Below, piece by piece: positions 6,044-43,913 of a DNA stretch of 44,558 nt (positions are counted from its first letter, which is position 1; each line of letters begins with the position of its first letter). The notes below the pieces were generated by a model that worked only from the letters and a program-made list of their open reading frames with translations, did not search any database and was not told where the DNA came from. This DNA is from a virus. Lineage: Duplodnaviria; Heunggongvirae; Uroviricota; Caudoviricetes. The position numbers were made by a program, and so were the translations under genes. The stretch lies in IMG/VR virus record IMGVR_UViG_2541047901_000009. One strand, 5' to 3'.

Positions 6044-6071
6044 AATCTCCCTTACACGGGCTTATTTTTTA
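6044..6071. repeat. Prophage attachment-site core, ogr-proximal copy (28-bp direct repeat AATCTCCCTTACACGGGCTTATTTTTTA)
   Basis: The identical 28-mer recurs at 43886-43913 next to int. It contains the remembered P2 att core (AAAAAATAAGCCCGTGTAAGGGAGATT) in reverse orientation. Confidence 0.85.
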
Positions 6072-6132
6072 CGCGTAACACAATGAAATAAAAGGATTTA
6101 TTTCTGGTCACGTCCACACATTGACCACATCG

Positions 6133-6158
6133 ACAAAAAAGCCCCTCGACTGAGGGGC
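6133..6158 (-). terminator. Probable rho-independent terminator downstream of ogr
   Basis: GC-rich hairpin GCCCCTC-gact-GAGGGGC followed on the minus strand by a T-run (plus-strand AAAAAA at 6135-6140). Confidence 0.5.
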
Positions 6159-6171
6159 TTCCTGTTTGTAA

Positions 6172-6390
6172 TTACATCCACATAATTTGCTGCCCTGACG
6201 GCAACGGGTGCGGTCTTACGGCGTGGACTTCTCCCGGCTTCACGATGTATCGCTGTACCGACTCATAAGTGATGAATGTGGCGCTGCAATTCACGTTCTG
6301 ACACTGGTGATAACGCTCTTTTGTCGTGTCAGTGATATAGCGGCTTGTACGCGCATGTGCGGCATGCTGGCATAAAGGACAATGAAACAT
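6172..6390 (-). CDS. ogr: P2 Ogr late-gene transcriptional activator (zinc-finger)
   Basis: 72-aa product from the internal Met (MFHCPLCQHAAHARTSRYITDTTKERYHQCQNVNC...) with CxxC...CxxC, matching P2 Ogr. The ORF-track N-terminal extension was rejected. Confidence 0.9.
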   Translation of the reverse strand: MFHCPLCQHAAHARTSRYITDTTKERYHQCQNVNCSATFITYESVQRYIVKPGEVHAVRPHPLPSGQQIMWM

Positions 6391-6471
6391 CGCGAGCACC
6401 TCTTCCGGTTTTGTTGATGGTGCCATTTTAGTTAATTTATCCTTATAAAACAAACAGATAAATAAATTACA

Positions 6472-7635
6472 TCACTCATCATCTTCTGTTTCGTACTCCA
6501 CATCAGAAAGCCTGACCTCAAGCTCTAAGGACGTCGTGAAGCCGCTATTATTCAGAAAATGTGTCACCTTAGTGATTGTCCAGTCCTGCTCGTCTATGAC
6601 GCGCTTAAAGCCTGATACTTTAACCGGTGTTTCCGTGTAAATATCAGCACGACCGGTAGCCAGGCTGATGGAGAACTCCGCAACGCCCCGTTGCAGTTTA
6701 TCCCACTTCGCCTGAGCGGCACGCATGGCCTGTGCTTTCGTGGCATATACCGTGGTCAGGGCAAAAACGTTGTCAGCCTCACCGGCCATGTATTCACCTT
6801 CGCGCGCTTCCGGTACTCTTGGCGCTTTCTTCTGCCTGACCGGTTTTGCTTTCGGGTGCTCCAGTGCGCGCAGGTGTTTTTCTTTCTTTTTGCGTTTCAG
6901 TTTTACCTTCTGCTTTTGCGGCTTCGGGTCTTTGGTGTGTAACCACTTTGCCGTTACGCCGGTATAGGCTCCACGGTCAGCAATCGCAAAATGATGGCGG
7001 TCGCCGTCGCTGCGGGTGATGGTGACCTGCGGGATTTTTTTACCGCTGGCCGTCACCCCCTGCCCCGCTTTGAGAAACAGCAGTTTTCCCATTTTTACCG
7101 ACACCTCACCGCCGTTGCGTTCTGCAAGACGGGTCAGGAATTTCGCATCAGACTCCTGCGACTGGTCGATGTGCGGAATTTTAATTCCGGCCAGTGACGG
7201 AGCGATACTGGCTTCCAGCCTGTTACGGGAGGCAATCGCCTCAACAATCGCACCGAGCGTGGTGTCATGCCAGGAGCCTTCCCGGCGGGAATTGAGCGTC
7301 CCGCGAAAATCTGCACTCCGGGCGCGGATGGTGACCACATCCGGCGCGCCCCGGTGTTCAACCTCATCAACGGTAAATTTCCCTTTGCATACCAGGGCAA
7401 AACCTTTCCAGCCGATATACACCGTCAGGACAGCGCCACGAACCGGCAGCCCGACCTGCCCGTCGGCATCGTTCAGTTCAATATCAAGCTGGTCAGCCTC
7501 AAAGCCCCGGTTATCCGTCAGGGTCATGCTCATCAGACGGTCGCTGATATTGCCGGTAATATCCCTGCTGTCGAGCATCAGCATGTAATCCGGCGTCAGC
7601 GTACTGCCTGCATCAAATGTCAGCGCATCCAGCAT
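6472..7635 (-). CDS. D: P2 gpD tail protein
   Basis: 387 aa, the same length and position as P2 D, between U and ogr. Confidence 0.88.
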   Translation of the reverse strand: MLDALTFDAGSTLTPDYMLMLDSRDITGNISDRLMSMTLTDNRGFEADQLDIELNDADGQVGLPVRGAVLTVYIGWKGFALVCKGKFTVDEVEHRGAPDVVTIRARSADFRGTLNSRREGSWHDTTLGAIVEAIASRNRLEASIAPSLAGIKIPHIDQSQESDAKFLTRLAERNGGEVSVKMGKLLFLKAGQGVTASGKKIPQVTITRSDGDRHHFAIADRGAYTGVTAKWLHTKDPKPQKQKVKLKRKKKEKHLRALEHPKAKPVRQKKAPRVPEAREGEYMAGEADNVFALTTVYATKAQAMRAAQAKWDKLQRGVAEFSISLATGRADIYTETPVKVSGFKRVIDEQDWTITKVTHFLNNSGFTTSLELEVRLSDVEYETEDDE

Positions 7636-8114
7636 TATCCCGCCCCCGTCATACCCGTGAATTTAGTCGCCATACTGCCAGCCTTACCGATGAGCGATTC
7701 CGCCTGTTTACCGATATCGCCATAAAGCGCGGCCAGTGATTCATCAACGCGGGTGAGCGACAGCGTAAAATCAATTTTTCGGGGTGTGCCGTCTGCAAAG
7801 AAAATACTCCCTGTTTCACTCACCCTGCTGATGACATACATGCCGTAAATCATGCCGGTGCCATCCAGCAACGGCCACGCCCGGCCTTCCTCTGCCATCA
7901 GTCTGAGCGTGGTCATCGTCAGCTTTCCGCCGGTCAGTTCTGGATAAAGCACACCGGCAAGCGTAATGTTTTCCTCACCCACACCGAGAAACTGGTAGGC
8001 ATCCCGTTTGCCGATACGGGAATTTGACGGCCAGCGATAATCTGATTCACGCTGCATGGTCTGGTGTGGCAGCGTCTGGCGCATAAAAACAAACATACCT
8101 AACGCGAGCATCAT
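7635..8114 (-). CDS. U: P2 gpU tail protein
   Basis: 159 aa, in the P2 U position and of P2 U length. Confidence 0.85.
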   Translation of the reverse strand: MMLALGMFVFMRQTLPHQTMQRESDYRWPSNSRIGKRDAYQFLGVGEENITLAGVLYPELTGGKLTMTTLRLMAEEGRAWPLLDGTGMIYGMYVISRVSETGSIFFADGTPRKIDFTLSLTRVDESLAALYGDIGKQAESLIGKAGSMATKFTGMTGAG

Positions 8115-8128
8115 TTTTCGTCACCTCC

Positions 8129-13104: not shown

Positions 13105-13482
13105 ATGAAATCAATTTTAGAGGTTTTTACTCAAGGAAATACTAAAGAAAAACTGGCTGTTATCGCCGATCTCACAACCATTGCGGGAATATCGATTGCA
13201 ACTATTATTGCTGGTTTGTTAACCCTAGTTGCAAAAACAGATAAACTAGATGTTGGAAATCTGTTTGGAGTTGTCATAATATCTCTGCTCGGATTGGCTG
13301 GTGTTTGCTGTTTTGTGGCCTTATTTATTTGGGTTATAACCCAAATGTCTAAACCATGGGGAACACCTCGGGGGGTTCAGCCCTTAGTTAAGTGTGCTAT
13401 TTCCCTTATCTTTATCTGTATGTTTTTGCTGGCTGTCTTTACATTTTATGAGTTTATTTCTTCGATGAGCATACGCTATTGA
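13105..13482 (+). CDS. Small hydrophobic membrane protein, about 125 aa, 3-4 predicted TM helices; function unknown
   Basis: ORF 13093..13482. Likely ATG at 13105 (MKSILEVF) with AGGTGG eight nt upstream and a TATAAT box at 13078-13083. Strongly hydrophobic and AT-rich. Confidence 0.6.
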   Translation: MKSILEVFTQGNTKEKLAVIADLTTIAGISIATIIAGLLTLVAKTDKLDVGNLFGVVIISLLGLAGVCCFVALFIWVITQMSKPWGTPRGVQPLVKCAISLIFICMFLLAVFTFYEFISSMSIRY

Positions 13483-13504
13483 ATATAAAATCAGCCCCCA
13501 TAAC

Positions 13505-14089
13505 TTAAAAGAGACCTTCTATATCGACTTCAATGCCCAAATAACGGACTGTGCTTTCCAGTTTCTTATGGCCCAACAGAAGTTGGATCCCCCGGAGACT
13601 CTTGGTTTTCTTGTAGATTAAGTAAGGTTTTGTTCTTCTCATGGAATGTGTGCTGTACAGCGAATCTTCGAGACCAAGCTTTTCTACCCACCCATGAAAA
13701 ATTCGGTTGTATTGCCGGGTTGATATATGGTGGTTAGTTCCGACCCGAGAGCGGAACAGGAAGCCTTTACTATGCCAGTTGCCGAGCTTTATCAATGCAG
13801 TAACCGCTTCCCTTGTCCCTTTGGTTATCTCAAATTGGACAGGGCTGCCGGTTTTCTGTTGCAACACCGTTGCTCTGCTTGAGACAGAACTGCCATATGC
13901 AGCATCTGATACTTTGAGTTTGACCAAATCACAGCCCCGTAGCTTAGTGTCCAAAGCCATGTTGAACAGAGCTAGATCGCGTGTTTTACCTTCCAACTCA
14001 AGTCTAATCCGGATCCCCCAGATATGAGATATCTGAAGTGGCCTTTTTTGACCGATGGTACGGTCTTTATTCCACGGTGACGTTTTCAT
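13505..14089 (-). CDS. Small tyrosine site-specific recombinase, about 194 aa, FimB/FimE-like size with catalytic domain only
   Basis: Catalytic signature in order: R (TKLRGCDLVKL), K, HSMRRT (H-x-x-R) and LLGHKKLESTVRY (H...Y). Start taken at the internal ATG (MKTSPWNK) preceded by AGGAG. Confidence 0.7.
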   Translation of the reverse strand: MKTSPWNKDRTIGQKRPLQISHIWGIRIRLELEGKTRDLALFNMALDTKLRGCDLVKLKVSDAAYGSSVSSRATVLQQKTGSPVQFEITKGTREAVTALIKLGNWHSKGFLFRSRVGTNHHISTRQYNRIFHGWVEKLGLEDSLYSTHSMRRTKPYLIYKKTKSLRGIQLLLGHKKLESTVRYLGIEVDIEGLF

Positions 14090-14195
14090 ATTCAAATCTC
14101 CTGCAATGTGGGAGATTTGAGTATGGTTGTCTCTCAAGAGCGAAAATAAGTCAACTATCACTAGTTGTTGCGCATGTACGTATTCTGTCAATTAA

Positions 14196-15038
14196 TTATT
14201 GACAATCATCAATTCTGGAATGATCAAAATCATCATATCGAATTATAGTCTGGTTGACTGTATCTATTGTTGGTGTCATTTCTGTTATAATATCCTGATA
14301 ACCTAAAGAGTTAAATACATTTACTAAGGCCTCACACCGAAGGGCCGTAGCAATTACAAAATTATAAATTGCCAGCCGTTTATTTTCTTGTTTAACTGCA
14401 AGAATGAATTCGATAGCAGTATTTTCATCACTTTGGATTGCATTATATAGAGATACTATATTTACCATATCATCAGAGAATGTATGTATTGAATCACAAA
14501 GAGGAACGTAATGGGCATGATAGTGTGTTTCCCAGCCAATTAATTCAAAAAGTTTTCTGGTTCCTGGATATTCAGGTGTATTTGGCCACAATCTATTAAA
14601 TAGATCAGTTAGTTCTTTTCCCATGCGAATCCTTTCATTTGCTGCTGGATTAGTCATTCCTTTGGATTTTAAACACTCCAGCCACCGTTTTCCATTACTA
14701 TGAACTAATTTCTTACTAGCCTTGAGTAATGCTTGTGCATTTTCGCCATCATCTATTGCTATATAAAATTGATTGGCAGCCTGTTCTATTATAACCCTAG
14801 CTAATACTTCCGATGCTGAAAAGGCTCCTATATTCAAAGAAGAGATAGCCTGATTACTAAGTTCATTCAGTACATTAAAGTACTGTAAGACCATCAATTT
14901 TTGTTCCACACCCTTTAGGTTGTCTATTTTATTTTTATGCTCCTCAAATTTTGCATGGATATATTTATTTATCGCGGCTATTTTTTTTACATCTTCGTCA
15001 AGATCAAACGGGCAACGTCCAAACAATTCTTTTTTCAT
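14196..15038 (-). CDS. Hypothetical protein, 280 aa, cargo gene directly upstream of the recombinase
   Basis: Clean ORF with AGGAGA five nt upstream of the ATG; its stop lies about 105 bp before the recombinase start codon. No recognisable family. AT-rich. Confidence 0.65.
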   Translation of the reverse strand: MKKELFGRCPFDLDEDVKKIAAINKYIHAKFEEHKNKIDNLKGVEQKLMVLQYFNVLNELSNQAISSLNIGAFSASEVLARVIIEQAANQFYIAIDDGENAQALLKASKKLVHSNGKRWLECLKSKGMTNPAANERIRMGKELTDLFNRLWPNTPEYPGTRKLFELIGWETHYHAHYVPLCDSIHTFSDDMVNIVSLYNAIQSDENTAIEFILAVKQENKRLAIYNFVIATALRCEALVNVFNSLGYQDIITEMTPTIDTVNQTIIRYDDFDHSRIDDCQ

Positions 15039-15459: not shown

Positions 15460-15987
15460 TTATTGCGGCATTTCCGGCCATTCAGGATTTGCAGGATCCA
15501 CACGGCTGACCAGAACACTGTAGCGTTCCCATGCTTCCAGTCGGCTACGCTCATCATCTGTTGCCATATTCAGTCTGACAGAGCGTTCCAGTGGCTGAAT
15601 GATAGTTTCAGCTTCGGAAAGCAAAGCTGACTTCTGTAATTCCGCCAGTTGCAGCTGTTCGTCTGCCGTATAAATCCGCTTAATCACGGCACCATCCTTA
15701 AACATCCATTTACCTGAGTCATCAGCACGTCGGTTGGCGGTAATATCAGGAACCTCGACAACGCTAAAACCTTCAGGGTTGAGCGTTGAAGCATCTCTGG
15801 TGATGCCGACAATTATATTATTCTCATCGTAAACAATCTTTATCGTGTCTTCCTGAAAATTACTTACTTCCTCATACCAGTTTTTTCCCTCTTCGGACCA
15901 TAACCAGATAACATCAAAATTTTTTGTCAGTTGATATTGGGCAACAGTTTTTGGATTACCCGCAGTAATATTTTTTAAATGCTGCAT
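15460..15987 (-). CDS. G: P2 gpG tail fibre assembly protein
   Basis: 175 aa, immediately downstream of H. Confidence 0.88.
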
Positions 15988-15990
15988 AAA

Positions 15991-26551: not shown

Positions 26552-26554
26552 GCG

Positions 26555-26758
26555 TTACTCCCACAGATTGACAGTTTCAGCCACGGGCGCGGTCTGAACG
26601 TCGGGCAGTTCGACGGCGGTGCCATGTGGCAGCACCGCCCCCAGTTCAGCCAGTCCCGGATTTGCGGCGAGCACGGTCTCAACCACGCCCTCAGTGCGCC
26701 CGTAATACCGGACACAAATGGCGTCGAGCGTGTCGCCCTGTAGCGCAAAGGTCTTCAT
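26555..26758 (-). CDS. X: P2 gpX tail protein
   Basis: 67 aa from the internal Met (MKTFALQGDTLDAICVRYYGRTEG...), overlapping the L stop. Confidence 0.85.
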   Translation of the reverse strand: MKTFALQGDTLDAICVRYYGRTEGVVETVLAANPGLAELGAVLPHGTAVELPDVQTAPVAETVNLWE

Positions 26759-27267: not shown

Positions 27268-27366
27268 GACTACCTCTGAAAAGTCGGGCGGTGGACGCCG
27301 GTGCAGTGTCAGGTGATTCACCCTCACTGACCGGCGTGCCGCCCTGGCGCGGGGCGCATTCGGTTG

Positions 27367-28110
27367 TTAACTGGCTTTCTTTTTCGGGCGTCCACGTTTT
27401 GCCGGTGTCGCACTCCGGGTCTTACGCGGGGCGCAGGTGGCCGCTTTTGGCTGTGGCTCCGGCTTCGGTTTCAGTTCCCGCTCCAGTCGTTCAATCTCTT
27501 TTTTGACGCCTGCCTGACAGTCGAGCTGTGTCGCACGTTGCAGGTGCGCCAGCGCACCTGCGGCATCACCAGCGTCACGCAGAAACAGACCGGTGATTTT
27601 GTGCAGCTTTGCGCGCACTTCATCAGGCATGTCAGCCGTGGCGGTCAGTTCGAGGGTGTCCGTCAGCAGGCGGGGATCCACAGACTCACCGGCAGCGTGG
27701 GCGCGCATGGCCGCGAGCGCCACCTCCTCGGTGAACATGTACGGCGGGGTGCGGCGGTGTTTACCCGGCATGGTCAGACCGTACTTCAGGGCATAACGGG
27801 CAATCTCCAGCGCACCGGCAATATCGCCGGTATCCAGACGCCACAGCATGACCGTCATCAGAATGTCATCCTGTGCACCTTTGCCCTGCTCCAGCACGCC
27901 GTTCACCCACGGCAACCAGAACGGCAGCAGTTCGCGTTTTTTCGCGGCCTTAAGCTCTTTTGAGTAAATCGCTTTCAGTGTGCGCTGGTCTGCGGCGAGC
28001 TTAACCAGCATCTGCTCATAGACAGTTGCATGTCGCAGCGGGGCGGCTTCCCGCTGCGCGGTCATCGCTGCCGAGACCCGCATCATGTGGCGCTGTGCGG
28101 GACTCGTCAT
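27367..28110 (-). CDS. M: P2 gpM terminase small (endonuclease) subunit
   Basis: 247 aa with a basic C-terminal tail, in the P2 M position. Confidence 0.88.
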   Translation of the reverse strand: MTSPAQRHMMRVSAAMTAQREAAPLRHATVYEQMLVKLAADQRTLKAIYSKELKAAKKRELLPFWLPWVNGVLEQGKGAQDDILMTVMLWRLDTGDIAGALEIARYALKYGLTMPGKHRRTPPYMFTEEVALAAMRAHAAGESVDPRLLTDTLELTATADMPDEVRAKLHKITGLFLRDAGDAAGALAHLQRATQLDCQAGVKKEIERLERELKPKPEPQPKAATCAPRKTRSATPAKRGRPKKKAS

Positions 28111-28113
28111 CAG

Positions 28114-29187
28114 TTACGCTCCCGGCTCTGCGGTCGCCCTGGCCGGTGTGGAGAAATCACCGACCTTAATTTTTTCCACCAGGCAACCGGCGGCGTAGTC
28201 TTCCACCACGTAATCAATATTCATTGACTCGTAGTTCTCCACGCGGTCGAGTTTCGGGTTTTCCACAATCACGCGGCGATGGCTGTCATCCATGTAGTAG
28301 ATGGACAGGTTTTCCAGCTTCGTGATGAGCATCGCATCCGCCGGGAAGTACGGGACGCGTACCGCTGGCAGGTTGCCGATGCGTTTCTGGCTGATGATGA
28401 CGTCAGCGGCCAGCATCTCGCTGTTGTCCTGCTCCTTGTTGACGATGGGGAAATACTTGTCCGCCAGTAGCTGACGCCCCACAATCACCACAAGGTCAGG
28501 GTCTTCCTGATACCACGGTTCAATCAGGTTGTTGGTCGCATCCATCACCAGTGCATCAAGGCTGGCATAATCACCGCCCTTACCCACGCGGATAACCTCA
28601 GAGGTGGTGCGGCCTTCCTCGTCAGTGACCTTGCTCATCACGCGCGCCGGGGCTTCATTGCGGTATTTCTGCAGCCAGCCGACCGCCACATCCTGCAACA
28701 TCGGATTGCTGCTGCGGTCAGAGGTTTCGGCACGCTTCACGCCGTTAAAACCGGCCATGATTAAATCAAGGGACTGGCGTTTGATAATGGCGTTACGGAC
28801 ACGGAGCTGGAAATCCTGATAACGCGCCCACAGGTCAAGCGTTTTGTAGCGGATATAAAAATCGAAGTTAATCTGGTCGCATTCGTACTTACTGGACGCC
28901 AGCTTCGAGAAGTCCTTCGGCTGACGCTCGGTGCCACCGGCGGTGTCGGTGGTGCTGGCGATGGAGCCGGTGACACCAATACCAATTTTTTCCCCTTTCA
29001 TTTCGCTGACCGGCACAATGTTGATGCGGGTCAGAAAGTCAGAGGACTCCTGCATGGTGTTCATCAGGGTCTGGGTGACCGACGGTTCAACGGTGAATTT
29101 TTTCGACACATCACCGGCGTCGATGCCGTTCAGCTCGGCAACACGGGACAGGTAGGCATTAAATTTAAAGCGGGTTTCCTGGCGCAT
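28114..29187 (-). CDS. N: P2 gpN major capsid protein
   Basis: 357 aa, in the P2 N position. Confidence 0.92.
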   Translation of the reverse strand: MRQETRFKFNAYLSRVAELNGIDAGDVSKKFTVEPSVTQTLMNTMQESSDFLTRINIVPVSEMKGEKIGIGVTGSIASTTDTAGGTERQPKDFSKLASSKYECDQINFDFYIRYKTLDLWARYQDFQLRVRNAIIKRQSLDLIMAGFNGVKRAETSDRSSNPMLQDVAVGWLQKYRNEAPARVMSKVTDEEGRTTSEVIRVGKGGDYASLDALVMDATNNLIEPWYQEDPDLVVIVGRQLLADKYFPIVNKEQDNSEMLAADVIISQKRIGNLPAVRVPYFPADAMLITKLENLSIYYMDDSHRRVIVENPKLDRVENYESMNIDYVVEDYAAGCLVEKIKVGDFSTPARATAEPGA

Positions 29188-29245
29188 AGTTTTTCCTGAA
29201 ATTAAGGGTTAATCGTGAAGGTTTTCCCGGACTGACTGACGCCGG

Positions 29246-30100
29246 TCAGCAGTTCGTCATCAGGGCGTCACCGCCACCGCCGGTGGCCTTGCTGCGGCGC
29301 TGCTGGGTCAGACTTTCGGTGTGGTCGAGACTGTTTTTCAGGCGGGTGAATGCCTGGCTGGTTTCATCCGCCCTGTCAGTCACCTCCTGCTTAAGTGCGG
29401 AAAAGGCGGTTTCCATCTCAGCGAGGCGCTGCTCAGTGGCACTCAGCTTTTCCTGCACATGTTCAGCAACAGCGGTCACCGCTTCATGCACGTCATTCAG
29501 ACGGGCGTCATCGCTGGCCTGTTTGCGGCCAAAAATGGATTTCACCTTTTCGGTCAGGGCGGTGAACACGGTTTCAGGCAGGTCTTCAAATTCCAGCTCA
29601 ACAGGCGTTGCCACTGAAATCAGGTTTTCAGGGCTTAATTTGAAGCGGTTCAGGGGGTTGTGTTTTGCCGTGCGGCAGAATTCCAGGTATTCCGTGCCGA
29701 GGCTTGCCGGGTCATCGGTGACGGCCAGCCCCACCAGATAACATTTGCCGGTGTTGGCAAAGTTCGGCTGAATTTCCATTGAGGTGTAGACCTTCTGCGC
29801 GGCCTTGTTCATCGCGATAAGGTCATCGGTCGGGGTGATTTTCGCAAACAGCGCCCATTTGCCTTTCAGCGCCGAATCGTCATCAATCTTTTCGGCCTTC
29901 AGTTCGGCCACATCGCCATAACGTTTAAAAATACCGTCAGGCAGGATGCCGCGCAGATGTTCCAGGTTAATGCGGCAACCATAGACACGCGGGTCAAAGG
30001 TTTCCGCCATTTCCTGAATATCCTGCGCACTGATGACACGCCCGTCACAGGTGTCACCCTCAACGCCGATACGAAAGAATTTTGAGACTTTTTTTGCCAT
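29246..30100 (-). CDS. O: P2 gpO capsid scaffolding protein
   Basis: 284 aa from the internal Met (MAKKVSKFFRIG...), in the P2 O position. Confidence 0.88.
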   Translation of the reverse strand: MAKKVSKFFRIGVEGDTCDGRVISAQDIQEMAETFDPRVYGCRINLEHLRGILPDGIFKRYGDVAELKAEKIDDDSALKGKWALFAKITPTDDLIAMNKAAQKVYTSMEIQPNFANTGKCYLVGLAVTDDPASLGTEYLEFCRTAKHNPLNRFKLSPENLISVATPVELEFEDLPETVFTALTEKVKSIFGRKQASDDARLNDVHEAVTAVAEHVQEKLSATEQRLAEMETAFSALKQEVTDRADETSQAFTRLKNSLDHTESLTQQRRSKATGGGGDALMTNC

Positions 30101-30273
30101 TGTCAGGAGTCCTGAATAGTGATTAGAGGAGTCACATGTCGGCATCAGTTTCCCGACGATGCGCATCCTCCGCCATCAGTCCCGGATGGCTTATCACTGA
30201 CACAACAGCACCTTAGCGAATCGCGGGGCGCGACTCAGTAGCCTTGCCGTGTATTCATCACGGCGAGGTATTC

Positions 30274-32046
30274 ATGACCATCACCACAGACACCACTCTT
30301 TTACACGACCCGCGTCGTCAGGCGGCGCTGCTGTACTGGCAGGGATTTTCCGTGCCGCAGATTGCCGCCATGTTGCAGATGAAACGCCCGACGGTGCAGA
30401 GCTGGAAACAGCGCGACGGCTGGGACAGCGTTGCTCCCATCAGCCGTGTCGAAATGAGTCTGGAAGCGCGGCTGACCCAGCTCATCATCAAACCGCAGAA
30501 AACCGGTGGTGACTTCAAGGAAATTGACCTGCTGGGACGCCAGATTGAACGACTGGCACGGGTAAACCGCTACAGTCAGACCGGCAACGAGGCAGACCTT
30601 AATCCGAACGTCGCTAACCGCAACAAAGGCGGGCGTCGCAAACCGAAAAAGAATTTTTTCAGTGACGAGGCCATCGAAAAGCTGGAGCAGATTTTCTTTG
30701 AGCAGTCTTTCGAATATCAGTTGCACTGGTATCGCGCCGGGCTTGAGCACCGCATCCGCGATATCCTGAAATCCCGCCAGATTGGCGCGACGTTTTATTT
30801 TTCCCGCGAGGCGCTGCTGCGCGCCCTGAAAACCGGTCATAACCAGATTTTTCTGTCGGCCAGTAAAACGCAGGCGTATGTGTTCCGCGAATACATCATC
30901 GCCTTTGCCCGGCTGGTTGACGTTGACCTGACCGGTGACCCGATTGTCCTGGGCAATAACGGCGCAAAACTGATTTTTCTCGGCACCAACTCCAACACCG
31001 CACAGAGCCATAACGGCGACCTGTACGTCGACGAGATTTTCTGGATCCCGAATTTTCAGGTACTGCGTAAGGTGGCATCAGGTATGGCCTCACAGAGTCA
31101 CCTGCGCTCGACCTATTTCTCCACCCCGTCCACGCTGGCGCACGACGCCTACCCGTTCTGGTCGGGTGAACTGTTCAACCGGGGACGCGCCAGCGCCGCC
31201 GAACGCGTGGAAATCGACGTCAGTCATAACGCCCTTGCCGGAGGTCTTCTCTGTGCGGACGGCCAGTGGCGGCAGATTGTCACCATTGAGGACGCCCTGA
31301 AAGGCGGCTGCACGCTGTTCGACATTGAGCAGCTCAAACGTGAAAACAGCGCCGACGATTTTAAAAACCTGTTCATGTGTGAATTTGTTGACGACAAGGC
31401 GTCGGTGTTCCCGTTCGAGGAGCTGCAACGCTGCATGGTCGACACGCTGGAAGAATGGGAAGACTATGCGCCGTTTGCCGCGAATCCGTTCGGCTCCCGC
31501 CCGGTATGGATTGGTTACGACCCGTCACACCGTGGCGACAGCGCCGGATGCGTGGTACTGGCACCGCCGGTGGTGGCCGGTGGCAAATTCAGAATACTTG
31601 AGCGTCACCAGTGGAAAGGCATGGACTTTGCCACTCAGGCGGAATCCATCCGCAAACTCACCGAAAAATACAACGTCGAATACATCGGTATTGATGCCAC
31701 CGGCCTCGGTGTCGGCGTGTTCCAGCTCGTGCGCTCGTTCTATCCCGCCGCGCGCGACATCCGCTACACGCCGGAAATGAAAACCGCAATGGTGCTCAAG
31801 GCCAAAGACGTTATCCGCCGTGGCTGTCTGGAATATGACGTCAGCGCCACCGACATCACCAGCTCGTTTATGGCTATCCGCAAGACCATGACCAGCAGCG
31901 GACGCAGCGCCACCTATGAGGCCAGCCGCAGCGAGGAAGCCAGCCACGCCGACCTCGCCTGGGCGACCATGCACGCCCTGTTAAATGAGCCACTCACCGC
32001 AGGTATCAGCACCCCGCTGACATCCACCATTCTGGAGTTTTACTGA
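30274..32046 (+). CDS. P: P2 gpP terminase large (ATPase) subunit
   Basis: 590 aa from the internal Met (MTITTDTTLL...), divergent from O across the late-promoter region. Confidence 0.92.
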   Translation: MTITTDTTLLHDPRRQAALLYWQGFSVPQIAAMLQMKRPTVQSWKQRDGWDSVAPISRVEMSLEARLTQLIIKPQKTGGDFKEIDLLGRQIERLARVNRYSQTGNEADLNPNVANRNKGGRRKPKKNFFSDEAIEKLEQIFFEQSFEYQLHWYRAGLEHRIRDILKSRQIGATFYFSREALLRALKTGHNQIFLSASKTQAYVFREYIIAFARLVDVDLTGDPIVLGNNGAKLIFLGTNSNTAQSHNGDLYVDEIFWIPNFQVLRKVASGMASQSHLRSTYFSTPSTLAHDAYPFWSGELFNRGRASAAERVEIDVSHNALAGGLLCADGQWRQIVTIEDALKGGCTLFDIEQLKRENSADDFKNLFMCEFVDDKASVFPFEELQRCMVDTLEEWEDYAPFAANPFGSRPVWIGYDPSHRGDSAGCVVLAPPVVAGGKFRILERHQWKGMDFATQAESIRKLTEKYNVEYIGIDATGLGVGVFQLVRSFYPAARDIRYTPEMKTAMVLKAKDVIRRGCLEYDVSATDITSSFMAIRKTMTSSGRSATYEASRSEEASHADLAWATMHALLNEPLTAGISTPLTSTILEFY

Positions 32047-32135
32047 TGAGTGCGTATTACCGTGAAGGAGATCGGTGAGTAACATCGATGGAGATCGGTT
32101 CGTGTCACTTTCACAGAACCGTTTTTAAATTACCT

Positions 32136-32885
32136 TCACTGATCTCCTTCGGTCAACGGTGATTGTATTTTCCGCATTGATTCTCCTTTAAGTTCGATCT
32201 TGATACTGCCATGAACCAGTCGATCTAGGATGGCATCCGCATGTGTGGAGTCTCCGATCATTTTGTACCAGTTTTCCACCGGCAACTGGCTCACTACGAT
32301 GATTGAGCCTCGTTGGTACATCAGATCCACTATTTCCAGCAGGTCGCTACGCTGTTCTGATGAGAGAGGTTCCAGCCCCCAGTCATCCAGAAGCAGCAGA
32401 TCGCTATTATTCAGCCTGGTCAAAAGTTTGCTGTATCTTCCATCAGCATGCCCCTGATAGCACTGTTCCATCAGCGCTTTAAGGCGATAATAGTAGACCT
32501 TGTATCCCTGTCGGCAGGCATTATGACCAAGTGCACATGCCAGGAACGTTTTACCGCTGCCGGTGGCCCCGGTCAGTAAAATATTTTGTTTCAGGGTTAA
32601 CCAGTTTCCCTGACTGAGTGAACGGATGAGGGCCCTGTCCAGCCCTCTATTGTTACGATAATCCAGCTTTGATAACTCAGCATTAAGTCTGAACCGTGCA
32701 TGTTTGATCAGACGCTCTGCCTTCCTGTTTTCACGGCAGGTTAGTTCTTCTGCTGTCAGTAATGACAGGCGTTCTTCGAAGCCCAGCTCCTGGTATGTGC
32801 CCGGCTGAGCAAGTTGCTTTTTAAGCGCATCACGGAAGCCGGTGAGTTTAAGTGCGGTCAGTTGTTCGTAAAGATGATTCATCAT
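32136..32885 (-). CDS. istB: IS21-family helper ATPase IstB
   Basis: 249 aa with Walker A LLTGATGSGKTFLACALG and Walker B LLLLDDWG. Confidence 0.93.
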   Translation of the reverse strand: MMNHLYEQLTALKLTGFRDALKKQLAQPGTYQELGFEERLSLLTAEELTCRENRKAERLIKHARFRLNAELSKLDYRNNRGLDRALIRSLSQGNWLTLKQNILLTGATGSGKTFLACALGHNACRQGYKVYYYRLKALMEQCYQGHADGRYSKLLTRLNNSDLLLLDDWGLEPLSSEQRSDLLEIVDLMYQRGSIIVVSQLPVENWYKMIGDSTHADAILDRLVHGSIKIELKGESMRKIQSPLTEGDQ

Positions 32886-32896
32886 TGGATCCCGTA

Positions 32897-34438
32897 TCAG
32901 TGGTAATACTCACTGCCGCGTACGTTTTCGTGTTCCATCGTGGATAACAGATCTGGTTTTGGATCCTGAACAGGTTGTTTATCCAGACCTTTTTCCAGGA
33001 TCGATTTAATACCTGACAGACGCCATACCTTTGTTTTCAGAGCTCTTGCACATGCTGCATTAAGTCTGGCTTTACTGTATTTTTTATGAAGGTTCAGGAG
33101 TCCAAGGCAGAAGCGATAGCTTTGTTCCGGATGTGGACGAGAGTTCAGTATATGAAGCACATAACTATGAGTTTCACTGCCTATGTGCCCCGCCCATTCC
33201 AGAAGACGCTCTGGCGTCCAGGTGGCATGCTGTCGATGAGCTTCAGGCATGTGCTCGTTGCGGGTACTGTAGCCATAAGTACGCTTGCGCGGGTGCACAG
33301 CAACCTCCTGCCCCTGATTGAAGAGTCTTACCAGTTCTCCGGAGATCCATGCTTCCAGTTGCTGGCCTAACAGCGAACATGGAACCGAGTAGTAATGTTT
33401 GTCGATTTCCACGTGGTAATCGGCATGAACTCTGACTTTCTTCACCAGGGTGTAACTGTAACTGGCTTCAGGAAGAGGCTTCAGTGCGGGTTTATCAAGC
33501 TGGATGAAGAGTTCTGCACGTGAATAACCCAACTTCTGCATTATTTTGTTATTCAGTCTTTCCAGCAACTCCCGAATGCGCTGATTAAGCGATGCAAGGC
33601 TGTAGAAGATCTCATGCCTGATTCGGGCCATGATCCAGCGTTCAACAACCTGAACGCCAACTTCAGCTTTGGCTTTATCTTTCGGTTTACGTGGCCGCGC
33701 AGGCAAAACTGCGACATTATAATGCTCAAGCATCTGCTGGTAGGTAGGGTTAACGTCAGGATCATACTTACATGCCCTGGATGTGGCGCTTTTCAGATTG
33801 TCCGGAACAACAAGTTCAGGAACGCCACCCAACCACTGGAAGCAGCGAACATGACTCATCACCCAGTCTTCAAGCTGCTGAGACCAGGTGGCCTCTGCCC
33901 ATGTGTAACTTGATGCCCCGAGAACAGCTACGATGACCTGAGCAGTTCTTATTTCTCCGGTCTCAGGGTCGGTAACGCCAACGGTAGGTCCACAGTAATC
34001 AACGAAAAGTTTTTCGCCAGCTTTATGTACCTGACGCATTGATGGTGAAGTGGTTTTGAGCCATTCACGGTACATCCGGCAGTAATGGTTATAGCTGTAA
34101 AAACCGCCTGGATTACGCTCACAGTATTCTTCCCAGAGTAGCTGCAGCGTCACGCATTTATTACGCAGTTCCCGGTGTACTGTAGCCCAGTCAGGCAGAG
34201 AGTGCTTCTTCATCTTAACCTGGGTCTGAAGGAACGCATGTTTTAGTTTTGTATCATCCCATCCTGTAGGTAAGGGCCACTGCTTTATGCCAAGTTGAGC
34301 CGCCCGATTAGCATATCTGGATACAACGGAAGGGGAGATTGCAAGACTACGACCAATTTGTCGATGGCTGAGTCCAACACCGTATTTAAGCCTAAGAATT
34401 TCTTTAAGTTTTCTCATAGAAATTGGAACTGTTGGCAT
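32897..34438 (-). CDS. istA: IS21-family transposase IstA
   Basis: 513 aa with an N-terminal HTH and DDE integrase core, immediately upstream of istB. Confidence 0.92.
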   Translation of the reverse strand: MPTVPISMRKLKEILRLKYGVGLSHRQIGRSLAISPSVVSRYANRAAQLGIKQWPLPTGWDDTKLKHAFLQTQVKMKKHSLPDWATVHRELRNKCVTLQLLWEEYCERNPGGFYSYNHYCRMYREWLKTTSPSMRQVHKAGEKLFVDYCGPTVGVTDPETGEIRTAQVIVAVLGASSYTWAEATWSQQLEDWVMSHVRCFQWLGGVPELVVPDNLKSATSRACKYDPDVNPTYQQMLEHYNVAVLPARPRKPKDKAKAEVGVQVVERWIMARIRHEIFYSLASLNQRIRELLERLNNKIMQKLGYSRAELFIQLDKPALKPLPEASYSYTLVKKVRVHADYHVEIDKHYYSVPCSLLGQQLEAWISGELVRLFNQGQEVAVHPRKRTYGYSTRNEHMPEAHRQHATWTPERLLEWAGHIGSETHSYVLHILNSRPHPEQSYRFCLGLLNLHKKYSKARLNAACARALKTKVWRLSGIKSILEKGLDKQPVQDPKPDLLSTMEHENVRGSEYYH

Positions 34439-34632
34439 AGGTATCCTTTACCGGAATGGCAAAAGATACAGATCAACACACCTGTGAAGTTCCAATAACA
34501 TTGATGGAGATCACTGAATAACAAAATGAGTCAAAAGTGATCTCCATCGATGTTATTCAGCGATCTGTTCAAATGTTATTACCCGATCTCGATGGAAGTT
34601 ATTGAGTGATCTCCTTTCATGAAAATACGCAG

Positions 34633-35667
34633 ATGAGCAAGAAAAAAGGGAAAACACCGCAACCTGCGGCAAAAACAATGACTGCCAGCGCCCCGAAAAT
34701 GGAGGCATTCACCTTTGGTGAGCCGGTACCGGTACTCGACCGCCGTGACATTCTGGATTATGTCGAATGCATCAGTAACGGCAGATGGTATGAGCCGCCG
34801 GTCAGCTTTACCGGTCTGGCAAAAAGCCTGCGTGCTGCCGTGCATCACAGCTCACCGATTTACGTCAAACGTAATATTCTGGCTTCAACGTTTATCCCGC
34901 ACCCGTGGCTTTCCCAGCAGGATTTCAGCCGCTTTGTGCTGGATTTTCTGGTGTTCGGTAATGCGTTTCTGGAAAAGCGTTACAGCACCACCGGTAAGGT
35001 CATCAGACTGGAAACCTCACCGGCAAAATATACCCGCCGTGGTGTGGAAGAGGATGTTTACTGGTGGGTGCCGTCCTTCAACGAGCCGACAGCCTTCGCA
35101 CCCGGCTCCGTGTTTCACCTGCTGGAGCCGGATATTAATCAGGAGTTGTACGGCCTGCCAGAATATCTCAGCGCCCTTAACTCTGCCTGGCTGAATGAGT
35201 CGGCCACGCTGTTCCGCCGCAAGTATTACGAAAATGGCGCACATGCCGGATACATCATGTACGTCACCGATGCCGTGCAGGATCGCAACGATATCGAAAT
35301 GCTTCGCGAAAACATGGTTAAGTCGAAAGGCCGCAATAACTTTAAAAATCTGTTTCTCTATGCCCCGCAGGGGAAAGCCGACGGCATTAAAATTATCCCG
35401 CTCAGTGAAGTGGCGACGAAGGACGATTTTTTTAATATCAAAAAAGCCAGCGCCGCTGACCTGCTGGACGCACACCGCATCCCCTTTCAGTTGATGGGCG
35501 GCAAGCCGGAGAACGTCGGGTCGCTGGGTGATATTGAGAAAGTGGCAAAGGTCTTTGTCCGCAATGAGCTTATCCCGCTACAGGACAGGATCCGCGAGAT
35601 AAACGGCTGGCTCGGTCAGGAGGTCATCCGCTTTAAAAACTACTCACTGGACACTGACAACGACTGA
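34633..35667 (+). CDS. Q: P2 gpQ portal protein
   Basis: 344 aa from the ATG at 34633 (MSKKKGKT...). This ATG lies inside the IS21 target-site duplication. Confidence 0.9.
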   Translation: MSKKKGKTPQPAAKTMTASAPKMEAFTFGEPVPVLDRRDILDYVECISNGRWYEPPVSFTGLAKSLRAAVHHSSPIYVKRNILASTFIPHPWLSQQDFSRFVLDFLVFGNAFLEKRYSTTGKVIRLETSPAKYTRRGVEEDVYWWVPSFNEPTAFAPGSVFHLLEPDINQELYGLPEYLSALNSAWLNESATLFRRKYYENGAHAGYIMYVTDAVQDRNDIEMLRENMVKSKGRNNFKNLFLYAPQGKADGIKIIPLSEVATKDDFFNIKKASAADLLDAHRIPFQLMGGKPENVGSLGDIEKVAKVFVRNELIPLQDRIREINGWLGQEVIRFKNYSLDTDND

Positions 35668-35834: not shown

Positions 35835-35853
35835 CAGTGCTTTCCCCGCCTCG
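35835..35853. other. P2 cos site (19-nt cohesive-end sequence)
   Basis: GTGCTTTCCCCGCCTCGCC is the reverse complement of the P2 cohesive end GGCGAGGCGGGGAAAGCAC as I remember it, located after Q as expected. Confidence 0.8.
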
Positions 35854-36006
35854 CCCGCCCGCTTCATGGGTCGGTTTGAATGCAGTTGAATTACAACTAC
35901 CAAACCAAGCAATCCCTACTATTACGCAGAAAATGCATACTGAAATACCTCGTGCAAATTGATGCAGCTAAGTATGCATAGGTTTTATGCCTCAACGTAT
36001 ACGTTA

Positions 36007-37839
36007 TCAAACAGAGCCCTGTTCAAATACAGTATCAAAATATGGTAGGAGAGGATAAGCACACAGAAAGAAAATCAGGATGCATGCATATGTCGTTGTT
36101 TCATCGTAACAAGCATTAGTATATAAATTACCATGTGCTAATTTATGTCTTAAGGTTGCCCCACTCTTTCTATTAAAAAGAACATCGATAGTTAAAACAA
36201 GATTCTTAGAAAAGATACTTTCCAAATCATCTCTGCATTTATCTAGAAGCTGAGAAATACTTGTTGACTCCTCTAATCCCTTATCCAAATATCTAGTAGC
36301 ATCCTTTCCACTAAGCTCATAATAATAACGAACCATACCTTCCATTTGTGGTATTAAAAGATAAGCTGCACTGATGTAATCTCCCTGCCATAATTTGTAA
36401 AAGCCCAAATTAAAAATCTCCCTAAACTCCGGCTTGACAATTGGACTAGTTGTAACTAATTTAACGAATGTTGACAACGTCAAGCCATGTTCTTGAGAAA
36501 GTACATAGCGAGCAGGTTCAAAGACACCGTTTACAAAAATCTTATGAGTAATCTCGAAATTTCTTAGATATTGATCAATAACAACATCATCACTCATATC
36601 TTTTTTATTATTCAACGGCGGGATTGTATATACCTTACGCCCACTCTCATCATTAATTTCTGTTCCAACAAAACTAGAGAATAAACTTTTTTCTGATAAT
36701 CTTAAAACTTGCTCCCTCATGCTTTCAATATTTTCAATCGGTGTTTCACGCATTAAAACTTTGAATATATCGGGCAAAGAACGCCCCGTCAGTTTTTTTT
36801 CACTTTCAGCAACCAAGTCACTAATATCAATAGAATGGCTTAAAGTGACATATTCACTCCTTACTTCTTCTCTCAAATTAGCAAGTTGTTCCTTTAAATC
36901 TTCTATCTGTTGGCTATCACCACCATACTGTCTTAATTCAGAGATAGCTGTTCTTAACCAAGAGATCTTACCCATATTATCAGGTCGATCTGTTGCAACT
37001 TTAATAGTAATATTTGCAGATGCCAGTTTACATCTCTTGGCACGTTCATACTCACCATTTTTTTCATAAATAACTGCACTTGTCATATAAAGTGATTTTA
37101 CAGCATCATAATATTTTTTATCTTTATGCTGCTCAGCCATCTTCTCAGCATTTTCCGCATACTGCAGATTATACCCATCAAAATCACGCACCATAAACCA
37201 AGTCAAATTATTGAAACCTTCAAAGATTAATCTTTCATTTTGAATACTATAAAGAGAATGAATGGCATTTTTAATCGCCATGTTTCCTTCTGATTTTCTA
37301 GGGTAGACCATTTTATTAATGTGCAAAGCCCTAGCAATATAATCACGAGCAAAAATAAAGCAATTTAAATCACTTTCATCCATGCTTTCGTTTTTTATTA
37401 TTAGTTTTTCAATTGCTATATTTAGCATTTCAGCATAGGAATCAATTGCTTTAATTGCCACGTCTTTGTTTTTCCGGTTATTACACCAAACAACATCATA
37501 TATTCTTGATAACAAAAATGGATTGGTTATTTTTTGAGAAACATATAAAAGACAGTCATTCACCTGCTCATCAAAATCTTCAGGCAATATTGATCTTTTA
37601 TTACCCCAAATCATTTGGGGTTCAAATGATGGAGTGTTGTTAACAACTTGCAAATTGAAACTATATAGCATACCAAAAAGAGATGCTAATTTTTTCTCTT
37701 TGGGGTTTCCTGATGATTCAGCAATCCCATCCAGATATTTTTTTATTTTATGTGCATGAAATGTAACTGGTATATGCATAAAAACACTATAATCTAGTGT
37801 TTCAAGCTCTTCCCTTGTAAGAACAAAGATATCATTCAT
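36007..37839 (-). CDS. Hypothetical protein, about 610 aa, at the P2 tin/old cargo position; C-terminal Rx4H motif
   Basis: Long ORF, very AT-rich by eye. Start taken at the ATG for MNDIFVLTREEL, preceded by AAGGTG; the ORF-track start is a TTG at 37941. C-terminal ATLRHKLAHGNLY fits an R-x4-H pattern. No Walker A seen. Confidence 0.65.
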   Translation of the reverse strand: MNDIFVLTREELETLDYSVFMHIPVTFHAHKIKKYLDGIAESSGNPKEKKLASLFGMLYSFNLQVVNNTPSFEPQMIWGNKRSILPEDFDEQVNDCLLYVSQKITNPFLLSRIYDVVWCNNRKNKDVAIKAIDSYAEMLNIAIEKLIIKNESMDESDLNCFIFARDYIARALHINKMVYPRKSEGNMAIKNAIHSLYSIQNERLIFEGFNNLTWFMVRDFDGYNLQYAENAEKMAEQHKDKKYYDAVKSLYMTSAVIYEKNGEYERAKRCKLASANITIKVATDRPDNMGKISWLRTAISELRQYGGDSQQIEDLKEQLANLREEVRSEYVTLSHSIDISDLVAESEKKLTGRSLPDIFKVLMRETPIENIESMREQVLRLSEKSLFSSFVGTEINDESGRKVYTIPPLNNKKDMSDDVVIDQYLRNFEITHKIFVNGVFEPARYVLSQEHGLTLSTFVKLVTTSPIVKPEFREIFNLGFYKLWQGDYISAAYLLIPQMEGMVRYYYELSGKDATRYLDKGLEESTSISQLLDKCRDDLESIFSKNLVLTIDVLFNRKSGATLRHKLAHGNLYTNACYDETTTYACILIFFLCAYPLLPYFDTVFEQGSV

Positions 37840-40724: not shown

Positions 40725-40726
40725 TA

Positions 40727-41283: not shown

Positions 41284-41313
41284 TTAAGTGCGTTAGAAAC
41301 TCTGGTTACTTAC

Positions 41314-42005: not shown

Positions 42006-42267
42006 CGAGACCTAACCACATCAACCAGCCGTCACGAATCTCTTTAGGGCGGCTTTCATAAGCCAGTTTTAGTCCGTTATTCCATGCCGGAAGGTATACC
42101 CAATATTCACCTGCACGACCTGAAGCTGATTGTGGATCGGTCATATCAATTACAGGCAGCTTTCCTTTATCGATCATCCGACGAACCGCTCCTGTCGATT
42201 TTCCTATTAGTTTTGCGAACTCCTGATAAGGAATCGCATCAGTCATGAGTGTTACTTGCTTGCTCAT
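41992..42267 (-). CDS. cox: P2 Cox (excisionase / early transcriptional regulator)
   Basis: 91 aa, divergent from C. Confidence 0.88.
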   Translation of the reverse strand: MSKQVTLMTDAIPYQEFAKLIGKSTGAVRRMIDKGKLPVIDMTDPQSASGRAGEYWVYLPAWNNGLKLAYESRPKEIRDGWLMWLGLGEPR

Positions 42268-42381
42268 GTCGTCCCCCAGCCCTCATGAATTGCGTTTAAT
42301 GCCTTATAATGCCTTTTAGTGCCCACATCCAAGCACTAAACAATCTACATCTAAACCAAATACTATTGAGATCTAAACACC
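42268..42381. promoter_or_regulatory. cox-C intergenic switch region (divergent Pe/Pc promoters with direct-repeat operators)
   Basis: Direct repeats TAATGCCTT x2 and ATCTAAAC x2 lie between the divergent cox and C starts, matching the P2 arrangement of C binding to directly repeated half-sites. Individual sites not assigned. Confidence 0.5.
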
Positions 42382-42681
42382 ATGTCAAACACGATAAGCG
42401 AGAAGATAGTCTTAATGCGAAAATCAGAGTATTTGAGCAGACAACAACTTGCTGATTTAACAGGGGTTCCGTATGGCACGCTGAGTTACTATGAAAGTGG
42501 TCGTTCAACACCTCCAACAGATGTCATGATGAACATCCTGCAGACCCCACAATTCACCAAATACACTTTATGGTTCATGACCAATCAGGTCGCTCCTGAG
42601 TCCGGGCAAATTGCGCCCGCTCTCGCACACTTTGGGCAAAACGAAACAACGTCGCCCCACTCCGGTCAAAAGACTGGTTAA
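42382..42681 (+). CDS. C: P2 immunity repressor C
   Basis: 99 aa, in the P2 C position. Confidence 0.9.
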   Translation: MSNTISEKIVLMRKSEYLSRQQLADLTGVPYGTLSYYESGRSTPPTDVMMNILQTPQFTKYTLWFMTNQVAPESGQIAPALAHFGQNETTSPHSGQKTG

Positions 42682-42796
42682 CAATTCATCGTGAATATAT
42701 TCATCACAAGTGCCTACTATTGGTGGCTAAATTTCAGCCACCACGAAAAAAGCGATTAGTAGTCGCAAAAAAACACACCACTCGGAGGGTTTTCTG

Positions 42797-43806
42797 ATGG
42801 CAATCAAAAAACTCGATGATGGTCGATATGAAGTGGACATCCGCCCTACTGGACGTAATGGAAAACGCATCCGTAGGAAGTTTGATAAGAAAAGCGAAGC
42901 TGTCGCTTTCGAGAAATACACGTTGTACAACCACCACAATAAAGAATGGCTATCAAAACCAACAGACAAGCGACGTCTGTCGGAGCTGACACAGATCTGG
43001 TGGGATTTAAAGGGTAAACACGAAGAGCATGGGAAATCTAATCTTGGAAAAATTGAAATCTTCACAAAAATAACGAATAACCCATGCGCATTTCAAATTA
43101 CGAAATCGCTTATCAGCCAGTACTGCGCCACCCGAAGAAGTCAGGGTATTAAACCTTCGAGTATCAATCGTGATTTAACATGTATTAGCGGCATGTTTAC
43201 AGCCCTGATTGAAGCGGAGTTATTCTTTGGTGAGCACCCTATCAGAGGGACAAAAAGGCTTAAGGAGGAAAAACCAGACACAGGCTATCTCACGCAGGAA
43301 GAAATTGCCTTACTGCTTGCTGCTCTTGACGGCGACAACAAAAAGATTGCGATTCTTTGCCTGAGTACTGGAGCACGTTGGGGAGAAGCAGCTCGTTTGA
43401 AAGCAGAAAATATCATCCATAACCGCGTCACGTTTGTTAAAACGAAAACAAACCACGCACCGTCCCGATCTCAGAGGCTGTTGCCAAAATGATCGCGGAT
43501 AACAAACGAGGTTTTTTATTCCCTGATGCTGATTACCCTCGCTTCAGACGAACAATGAAAGCAATAAAACCGGATTTGCCAATGGGGCAAGCCACACATG
43601 CACTAAGGCACAGCTTTGCCACTCATTTCATGATTAATGGAGGAAGTATTATCACGCTACAACGGATACTAGGTCACACGCGGATTGAGCAAACTATGGT
43701 TTACGCTCATTTTGCGCCAGAGTACCTTCAGGACGCCATTTCTCTTAATCCGCTAAGAGGTGGTACTGAGGCCGAGAGTGTCCACACAGTGTCCACAGTA
43801 GAGTAA
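42797..43806 (+). pseudogene. int: P2 integrase (tyrosine recombinase) interrupted by a frameshift
   Basis: Two consecutive ORFs in different frames (42797..43492, 231 aa; 43489..43806, 105 aa) together cover an integrase of about 337 aa. The C-terminal part retains HALRHSFATH...LGHTRIEQTMVYAH. The frame break lies in an A/C-rich run around 43445-43456. Confidence 0.7.
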
Positions 43807-43885
43807 CGTTTAAGGGCTTTCAGTGGTAATTTATGCCGCTCAAACCCGCATTGTACCGTTGAAAGCCCCTACTGGTGACACCCTA

Positions 43886-43913
43886 AATCTCCCTTACACG
43901 GGCTTATTTTTTA
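43886..43913. repeat. Prophage attachment-site core, int-proximal copy (28-bp direct repeat)
   Basis: Identical to 6044-6071. Confidence 0.85.

Follow-up and report, generated by a model that had tools for sequence, protein, structure and literature searches.

Bacteriophage P2 is the closest described relative of the element analyzed here. Its record (NC_001895), from which we took the operon structure, comprises an O operon (O, N, M, L, X, Y, K, lysA, lysB, R and S) and a P operon (P and Q), with R, S and Q being essential and lysA and lysB non-essential, and states that excision of P2 requires both Int and Cox. The A-Q site of P2 has been described as a defence hotspot (PMC9122126), and a report on defective P2 elements whose defence genes are conserved raised their domestication as an open question (PMC13586616). 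At the extreme end of decay, the cryptic prophage PR-X of Escherichia coli K-12, which lies at the same locus as the element studied here as judged from cyaR and yegR, is of P2 origin but consists of only 629 bp (ogrK and yegZ) and has no cargo. The present analysis concerns a P2 prophage in a 44,558-nucleotide stretch of DNA (IMG/VR record IMGVR_UViG_2541047901_000009; the whole stretch is referred to as the window), which megablast searches, with the right end and then with the whole window, assigned to the E. coli S88 clone, in which it corresponds to the yegQ(trhP)-yegR region. In comparison with the K-12 remnant the window contains a whole phage and thus a much earlier stage of decay. We consider it very probable that this prophage has lost the ability to excise and, still early in its decay, is accumulating insertion sequences (IS). 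The features that bear on this reading are the following (window coordinates).

6044-43913: P2 prophage, 37,870 bp, delimited by the attachment (att) repeat, P2 protein comparison and lengths
6044-6071: att core on the ogr side, overlapping the 3' end of the cyaR small RNA (sRNA) gene
43886-43913: att core on the int side
42797-43806, + strand: int pseudogene, frame lost after approximately residue 219, premature stop at 43490-43492
24325-25762, - strand: IS110-family (IS1111-group) insertion sequence, 1438 bp, an insertion relative to S88
24597-25616, - strand: intact DEDD transposase of 339 amino acids, identical to WP_000878012.1
32051-34631, - strand: ISEc12 (IS21 family), 2581 bp
32136-32882: istB
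32897-34438: istA

A preliminary description of the window had proposed a probably cryptic prophage with three independent lesions, one of them an int gene split into two frames at 42797-43806. Compared with the intact allele of AH21I008 (1014 nucleotides), int was indeed found to lack 4 bases, with (AAAC)3 reduced to (AAAC)2 at 43446-43453. The truncated Int retains the N-terminal arm-binding part and Arg194, and His269, Arg272 and Tyr304 are encoded only in the second frame (HALRHSF at residues 269-275 and VYAHF at 303-307); the tyrosine recombinase set Arg...His-x-x-Arg...Tyr was not found within one Int polypeptide, the first frame ending at 43492. The suggested comparison with related strains showed that the 2559-bp stretch from int to yegR is gap-free and 100% identical in S88, MS7163, N53 and N62, i.e. 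in four of the 741 genomes covering this stretch, while the other listed genomes among the 741 are 4 bp longer and have an integrase annotated as intact. In S88, MS7163 and N53 the identical int sequence is marked 'frameshifted' by RefSeq. Since the allele is also present in four independently sequenced genomes, the lesion is real and clonal. The earlier caveat that the A/C-rich run of int might contain a homopolymer error can be dismissed, because the change is the loss of a complete tetranucleotide repeat unit, on which five assemblies agree. An inactivating mutation in a gene required to excise or to grow lytically, such as this 4-bp deletion, is a hallmark of a defective prophage. With the catalytic His, Arg and Tyr of Int removed, an inability to excise is well founded, and the immobility of the prophage through the int lesion is well supported at the sequence level. 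Packaging of P2 needs a cos-containing circle, so that no phage should be produced once Int is lost.

Comparison with S88 (NC_011742.1) revealed 100% identity over five collinear blocks, with zero substitutions in the prophage and differences only in IS elements. Structurally, the window differs from S88 by the 1438-bp insertion and by an ISEc12 at the junction of P and Q, which in S88 lies inverted inside N. Such an ISEc12 copy inside the capsid gene N (duplication ACTGG) was found in S88, MS7163 and N53, the three annotations inspected, while N of the window is exact at the corresponding empty site (28773-28777; ISEc12 at 28779-31359 in the compared locus, L001). The ISEc12 copy of the window is located 3.3 kb from this empty site, in the opposite orientation to the N copy. 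Apart from the IS elements, the prophages of S88, MS7163, N53 and N62 are 100% identical in nucleotide sequence to that of the window and have its cargo and int deletion, but the IS110-family element is absent from S88, MS7163 and N53. We take the hosts of these four prophages to belong to the ST95 clone. In comparison with the S88-group genomes both IS positions are unique to the window. Since the int deletion is common to the sister genomes, the int lesion appears to have come first, with the IS elements following later and separately in each sub-lineage, and the most satisfactory explanation of the two ISEc12 configurations, in N and at P/Q, is that sister lineages acquired them separately once the int deletion was in place. 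The three lesions are events of different kinds, namely repeat slippage, IS110-family target recombination and IS21-family transposition, and date from different times. An identity of the window with an existing complete genome was considered and rejected, as no record covers the IS110 junction and the six genomes with the junction between P and ISEc12 have it on another haplotype.

The second lesion, an IS110-family element separating K from lysA, was recovered as the 1438-bp insertion at 24325-25762. It is positioned inside the 14 bp that separate the stop codon of K from the start codon of lysA, parting the Shine-Dalgarno sequence of lysA (CTCC on the + strand, 25767-25770) from its ATG (24314-24316), and is bordered on both sides by TTTA (24321-24324 and 25763-25766), which leaves a boundary ambiguity of up to 4 bp. 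The 339-amino-acid transposase contains the domains DEDD_Tnp_IS110 (PF01548, 2.6e-11) and Transposase_20 (PF02371, 6e-22), and WP_000878012.1 is named IS110 family transposase by PGAP. Sub-terminal inverted repeats and a longer 3' end that holds the bridge RNA are hallmarks of the IS1111 group (PMC11208160). In line with these, the element has 13-bp sub-terminal inverted repeats (ATGAACGCATCCC and GGGATGCGTTCAT) located 1-4 nucleotides from its ends, and its non-coding ends measure 146 nucleotides at the 5' side versus 272 nucleotides at the 3' side, so that it has the DEDD transposase, the repeats, the end lengths and a conserved specific target in common with bridge-RNA-guided members of the group. 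This target was evident from four independent insertions (window, CEA106S, pJNE132847_1 and SC418), which conform to CATGG[T/G][G/A]TTTA-IS-TTTACT, the three sites outside the window being the junction of the tail genes L and K in a lambdoid element, an autotransporter gene and a permease gene on a plasmid. P2 itself carries the target motif, CATGGTATTTACT, at its K-lysA spacer. Since the site matches the element's own target motif, the insertion looks natural and sequence-directed.

No Rfam match to a bridge RNA or any other RNA family was obtained for this element. Its 3' non-coding end holds CGCAGTAAAT, a single short match with 10-nucleotide identity to the commonest target, which may represent the bridge-RNA guide. 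Among the 10 best copies of the element in complete E. coli genomes, 7 are located at the L/K junction of lambdoid tail genes, and a near-match to the target motif, CATGGTGTTTAG, occurs at 42374, at the start of gene C. The junction of the element with lysA was present in no other complete E. coli genome and, by exact-match scans, in no metagenome or species-representative contig. The insertion breaks the O operon upstream of lysA, lysB, R and S, with the transposase gene co-oriented with the operon. On the strand of late transcription no convincing intrinsic terminator was found in the element, the counts being within the expectation from shuffled sequence, and polarity on the O operon is plausible.

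The IS21-family element that had been reported to separate P from Q is ISEc12, located at 32051-34631 and flanked by a GATGAG duplication. Its istA (transposase) and istB (helper ATPase) genes lie between TG...CA inverted repeats, as is typical of the IS21 family, its ends are TGCGTATT...AATACGCA, and it is 100% identical to the annotated istA/istB copy in S88. The 6-bp target duplication (32045-32050 and 34632-34637) falls on the overlap of the P stop with the Q start (...TAC TGA TGAG), where the left GATGAG copy preserves the TGA of P and the right copy the ATG of Q, leaving both reading frames whole. However, 2.6 kb now separate Q from its Shine-Dalgarno sequence (GGAG, 32034-32037) and from the P promoter, the intervening IS being read antisense to istAB. 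On the late-transcription strand of ISEc12 terminator-like hairpins were no commoner than in shuffled sequence, and promoter and terminator scans in both IS elements likewise gave results no better than shuffled sequence, so that polarity is neither favoured nor disfavoured by them.

The same insertion point, orientation and duplication at P/Q were found in six further complete genomes. Three cases were examined, i.e. the second P2 prophage of MS7163 (at pflA), a prophage of the ST131 strain 18044 (also at pflA) and that of the bovine isolates OkiPb01678/01712 (at yegQ-yegR), and their ISEc12 copies differ by 0-2 bases, the MS7163 copy being identical. In contrast to the window, all of these prophages have an intact int and different cargo, and they have common flanking single-nucleotide polymorphisms (SNPs) that are absent from the window, the first of them lying 49 bp from the IS on its left side and 26-44 bp on its right side. 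Since these SNPs differ, the P/Q copy of the window would represent either an independent insertion into a hot spot or a conversion tract of very small extent, and the recurrence of such copies is suggestive of a hot spot or of an IS-bearing module that spreads by recombination. That the copy was acquired by gene conversion from a co-resident prophage of the MS7163 type is unlikely, since such a tract could reach no further than 49 bp beyond the IS on the left and 26 bp on the right. The motif GTTTT(A/C) was present directly beside the duplication, on the istB side, at four of six independent ISEc12 sites, which favours a target preference; two of these sites lie in P4-like satellites. At five other sites the duplication measured 5-7 bp. 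In BCE-1, ISEc12 interrupts Q itself, and approximately 100 genomes have the element in the same orientation within the stretch from lysA to Q, the inspection of individual genomes covering BCE-1 and the three P/Q prophages. Four isolated E. coli phages of 52-54 kb (PhiR12 series; PV340549-PV340553) carry 100% identical full-length ISEc12, suggesting that this IS can travel in viable phage genomes of another type. A literature search on ISEc12 retrieved no paper on its occurrence in P2 prophages. The occurrence of ISEc12 at one nucleotide position of P2, together with the clear target motif of the IS1111-group element, may be of side interest for IS targeting.

From these directly observed lesions we infer the following sequence of events. 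Slippage in (AAAC)3 would first have deleted 4 bp from int, which would have abolished Int-dependent excision, so that the cos-containing circle for packaging could no longer form. With the lytic functions no longer under selection, IS elements could then have gathered separately in the sub-lineages, ISEc12 entering N in the lineage of S88, MS7163 and N53, and the IS1111-group element and ISEc12 entering the K-lysA motif and P/Q, respectively, in that of the window. In the window, lysA and Q are cut off from their ribosome-binding sites by these two elements, the O operon is interrupted before R and S, and the P operon before Q. Without the two IS elements and their duplications the prophage would measure 33,841 bp, close to the 33,593 bp of P2, while its present length corresponds to 112.7% of P2 (37.9 kb, compared with 31.1-34.8 kb in the 15 closest isolated phages), which may create a packaging-size problem. 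Expression presumably continues from the repressor gene C, cox, ogr and the three cargo loci, all of which are intact. Several observations weigh against this account. The int gene is the sole broken reading frame and neither IS interrupts a gene; the late-transcription direction of both elements is devoid of a convincing intrinsic terminator, and the co-orientation of the IS110 transposase makes read-through to R and S possible. Moreover, ISEc12 at P/Q also occurs in prophages with an intact int and different cargo, located at two different att sites, suggesting that the insertion may be tolerated or spread by recombination, and a co-resident P2 of the same specificity could in principle supply Int in trans. 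The proposed crypticity is nevertheless upheld by the loss of the catalytic residues of Int, any damage by the IS elements, which break no frame, being presumed only. We regard the feature as ordinary and already understood prophage decay. Its value is that of a clean and datable example, in which int was lost first and different IS elements were then acquired per sub-lineage while the rest of the 34-kb phage remained base-identical; beyond correct annotation its significance is small, and release of this phage by the strain is not to be expected. P2 is not known to be inducible by DNA damage, for which induction tests must allow.

The possibility that the lesions are sequencing or assembly artefacts, i.e. 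a miscalled int repeat or an IS misplaced between near-identical P2 prophages, could draw on the absence of the IS110/lysA junction from all other complete E. coli genomes and from the metagenome and species-representative contigs scanned, on the location of ISEc12 in N and not at P/Q in the sister genomes, and on the second P2 prophage of MS7163 with an identical ISEc12 at P/Q. It is hardly credible, however, as four further assemblies of independent origin have an identical int allele, the duplicated flanks of both IS elements are clean and belong to the S88 haplotype, the IS110 site matches the natural target motif of that element and the empty site in N is exact, and a chimeric assembly would have brought along the SNPs of the second prophage, which lie 49 bp from ISEc12 on the left side and 26 bp on the right. 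The late promoters of P2 answer to Ogr or to a P4-type delta, and the helper function of P2 for P4 is independent of Int. An excision-dead prophage might therefore still hold a working late-gene cassette, providing capsids, tails and lysis for a P4-like satellite, or cell lysis alone, with the IS elements being only partly polar. The intact state of all late genes, of ogr and of the PO/PP activator site would be compatible with such a role, as would an N gene that is intact, unlike that of S88, the prediction of no strong terminators inside either IS, and an IS110 transposase transcribed with the O operon. Yet Q has lost its Shine-Dalgarno sequence and is preceded by 2.58 kb of IS RNA that is antisense and not translated, a stretch over which Rho-dependent polarity would be expected, the Shine-Dalgarno sequence of lysA is lost as well, and neither insertion, at P/Q or K/lysA, was found in any isolated P2-like phage (approximately 90 records), which makes this explanation quite unlikely. 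We are more doubtful still about the idea that both IS elements preferentially lock P2-type or lambdoid prophages while destroying no gene, ISEc12 through a P/Q hot spot beside GTTTT(A/C), with N, Q and P4-like satellites as further targets, and the IS1111-group element through being programmed for a motif of phage late operons that covers a start codon and the spacer preceding it, as at the lambdoid L/K junction and between K and lysA of P2; neither insertion would then be random.

The preliminary description had also suggested that the prophage persists as a domesticated carrier of its cargo, which occupies the three classical cargo sites of P2.

13105-15038: cargo at the P2 fun(Z) site, comprising an open reading frame (ORF) of 125 amino acids (+), a tyrosine-recombinase-like protein of 194 amino acids (-) and a DUF5677 protein (-), with a GC content of 35-41%
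21298-22377, + strand: cargo at the P2 orf30 site, a RelA/SpoT-type small alarmone synthetase homologue of 359 amino acids, PADLOC candidate PDC-S33
36007-37839, - strand: cargo at the P2 tin/old site, a DUF7380/DUF4209 protein of 610 amino acids, PADLOC candidate PDC-S39 (8e-85)

If the cargo and immunity benefited the host, lesions that lock the prophage in place might have been selected. This would be in agreement with intact genes at all three sites, the PADLOC matches of two of the loci, the intact C and cox, and the published reports on the A-Q hotspot and on defective P2 elements with conserved defence genes (PMC9122126; PMC13586616). However, PDC-S33 and PDC-S39 are only candidate families and no PADLOC model matched the proteins at the fun(Z) site, and the K-12 remnant at the same locus is without cargo. 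In addition, conservation of the cargo alongside decay of the lytic genes was not observed, both being equally intact, although this comparison has no power at such an age. The intactness of the lytic genes together with zero substitutions relative to S88 fits very recent neutral decay equally well. Domestication for the sake of the cargo, an already published idea and not a new one, is in our view unlikely here, and we retain early decay of an excision-dead prophage as the preferred reading.

Within the cargo, the first approximately 200 residues of the 359-amino-acid protein resemble RelQ/RelP-type synthetases and its last approximately 150 residues match nothing; a CapRel-like match by sequence was not obtained. 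Relatives of solved structure were found for the RelA/SpoT domain only (small alarmone synthetases), and none for the DUF7380 or DUF5677 proteins. The DUF7380/DUF4209 gene is also present in the BCE-1 and OkiPb01678 prophages, and the second P2 prophage of MS7163 has the DUF5677 gene with a mere fragment of the recombinase. The 125-amino-acid ORF at the fun(Z) site is divergent.

Apart from int, the preliminary statement that the structural genes are full length was borne out by tblastn of the 42 annotated P2 proteins (NC_001895) against the window. In total 38 of the 42 proteins are present in P2 order, and the four absent ones are known non-essential cargo genes; orf30, fun(Z) and orf91/tin/old had no counterpart. 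Outside the three cargo sites all P2 genes extend end to end and stop-free, except int in its two pieces, and amino acid identity to P2 is mostly 95-100%, with approximately 88% for orf81 and G. Gene order is common to both phages, and C, cox, ogr, Int, A and B are among the close matches. Exact P2 matches were obtained for cos, tQ, the PO/PP activator site, ori, the Int arm sites and the Cox sites, while the activator sites of the V and F late promoters were not recovered by short-BLAST or by the pattern TGT-N12-ACA, the regions concerned adjoining swapped cargo. Gene order together with cos, ori, the attP core and the Int and Cox binding sites places the element among the P2-type phages (Peduovirus), and judged from its nucleotide and protein matches it is phage P2 itself with other cargo and more than merely P2-like. 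It differs from P2 in the cargo at orf30, fun(Z) and orf91/tin/old, in a longer H, in the frameshifted int and in the two IS elements. The genes and sites kept are as follows.

6172-6390, - strand: ogr, late-gene activator, 100% identical to P2
6472-12774, - strand: F operon (FI, FII, E/E', T, U, D; tail sheath, tube and tape measure), all full length
15460-21152, - strand: V operon (V, W, J, I, H, G; baseplate and tail fibre)
22458-24316, - strand: distal O operon downstream of the IS, with lysA (23891-24316), lysB, lysC, R and S, all full length
25773-30100, - strand: proximal O operon (O, N, M, L, X, Y, K), N intact
25773-26270: K
30274-32046, + strand: P, terminase large subunit, full length, TGA stop at 32044-32046
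34633-35667, + strand: Q, portal, full length, ATG at 34633-34635
35837-35855, - strand: cos, 19-nucleotide cohesive end, identical to P2
37956-42267, - strand: early operon (cox, orf78, B, orf80-83, A) with the ori nick site, all full length
42382-42681, + strand: C, immunity repressor, 99% identical to P2 C

The tail-fibre gene H (15991-18726, - strand) is a single open frame of 911 amino acids, compared with 669 in P2. In the tblastn comparison its first approximately 207 residues are 84% P2-like and the C-terminal approximately 200 residues are 52% identical, the rest being unaligned. The divergent C-terminus suggests a receptor specificity different from that of P2.

The limits of the prophage given previously (6044-43913) coincide exactly with the edges of a perfect 28-bp direct repeat, AATCTCCCTTACACGGGCTTATTTTTTA, at 6044-6071 and 43886-43913, which is the longest repeat common to both ends and represents the P2 attP core. 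The insertion site is the yegQ(trhP)/cyaR-yegR attachment site, and an ogr-type junction at the yegQ-yegR locus was found in about 1195 of 5426 complete E. coli genomes. The gene for the CyaR (RyeE) sRNA (5982-6067, + strand; Rfam RF00112, 100.7 bits) terminates within the att core, so that the 3' end of the sRNA is supplied by the phage core, and K-12 has an equal arrangement of cyaR and att beside its own P2 remnant. Upstream, positions 1-4050 (- strand) form a block of low GC content (37-44%) between yegP and trhP, which encodes DUF4034, DUF1266 and PcfJ-domain proteins. Since K-12 has nothing between yegP and trhP, this block represents a small island of its own, upstream of the prophage.

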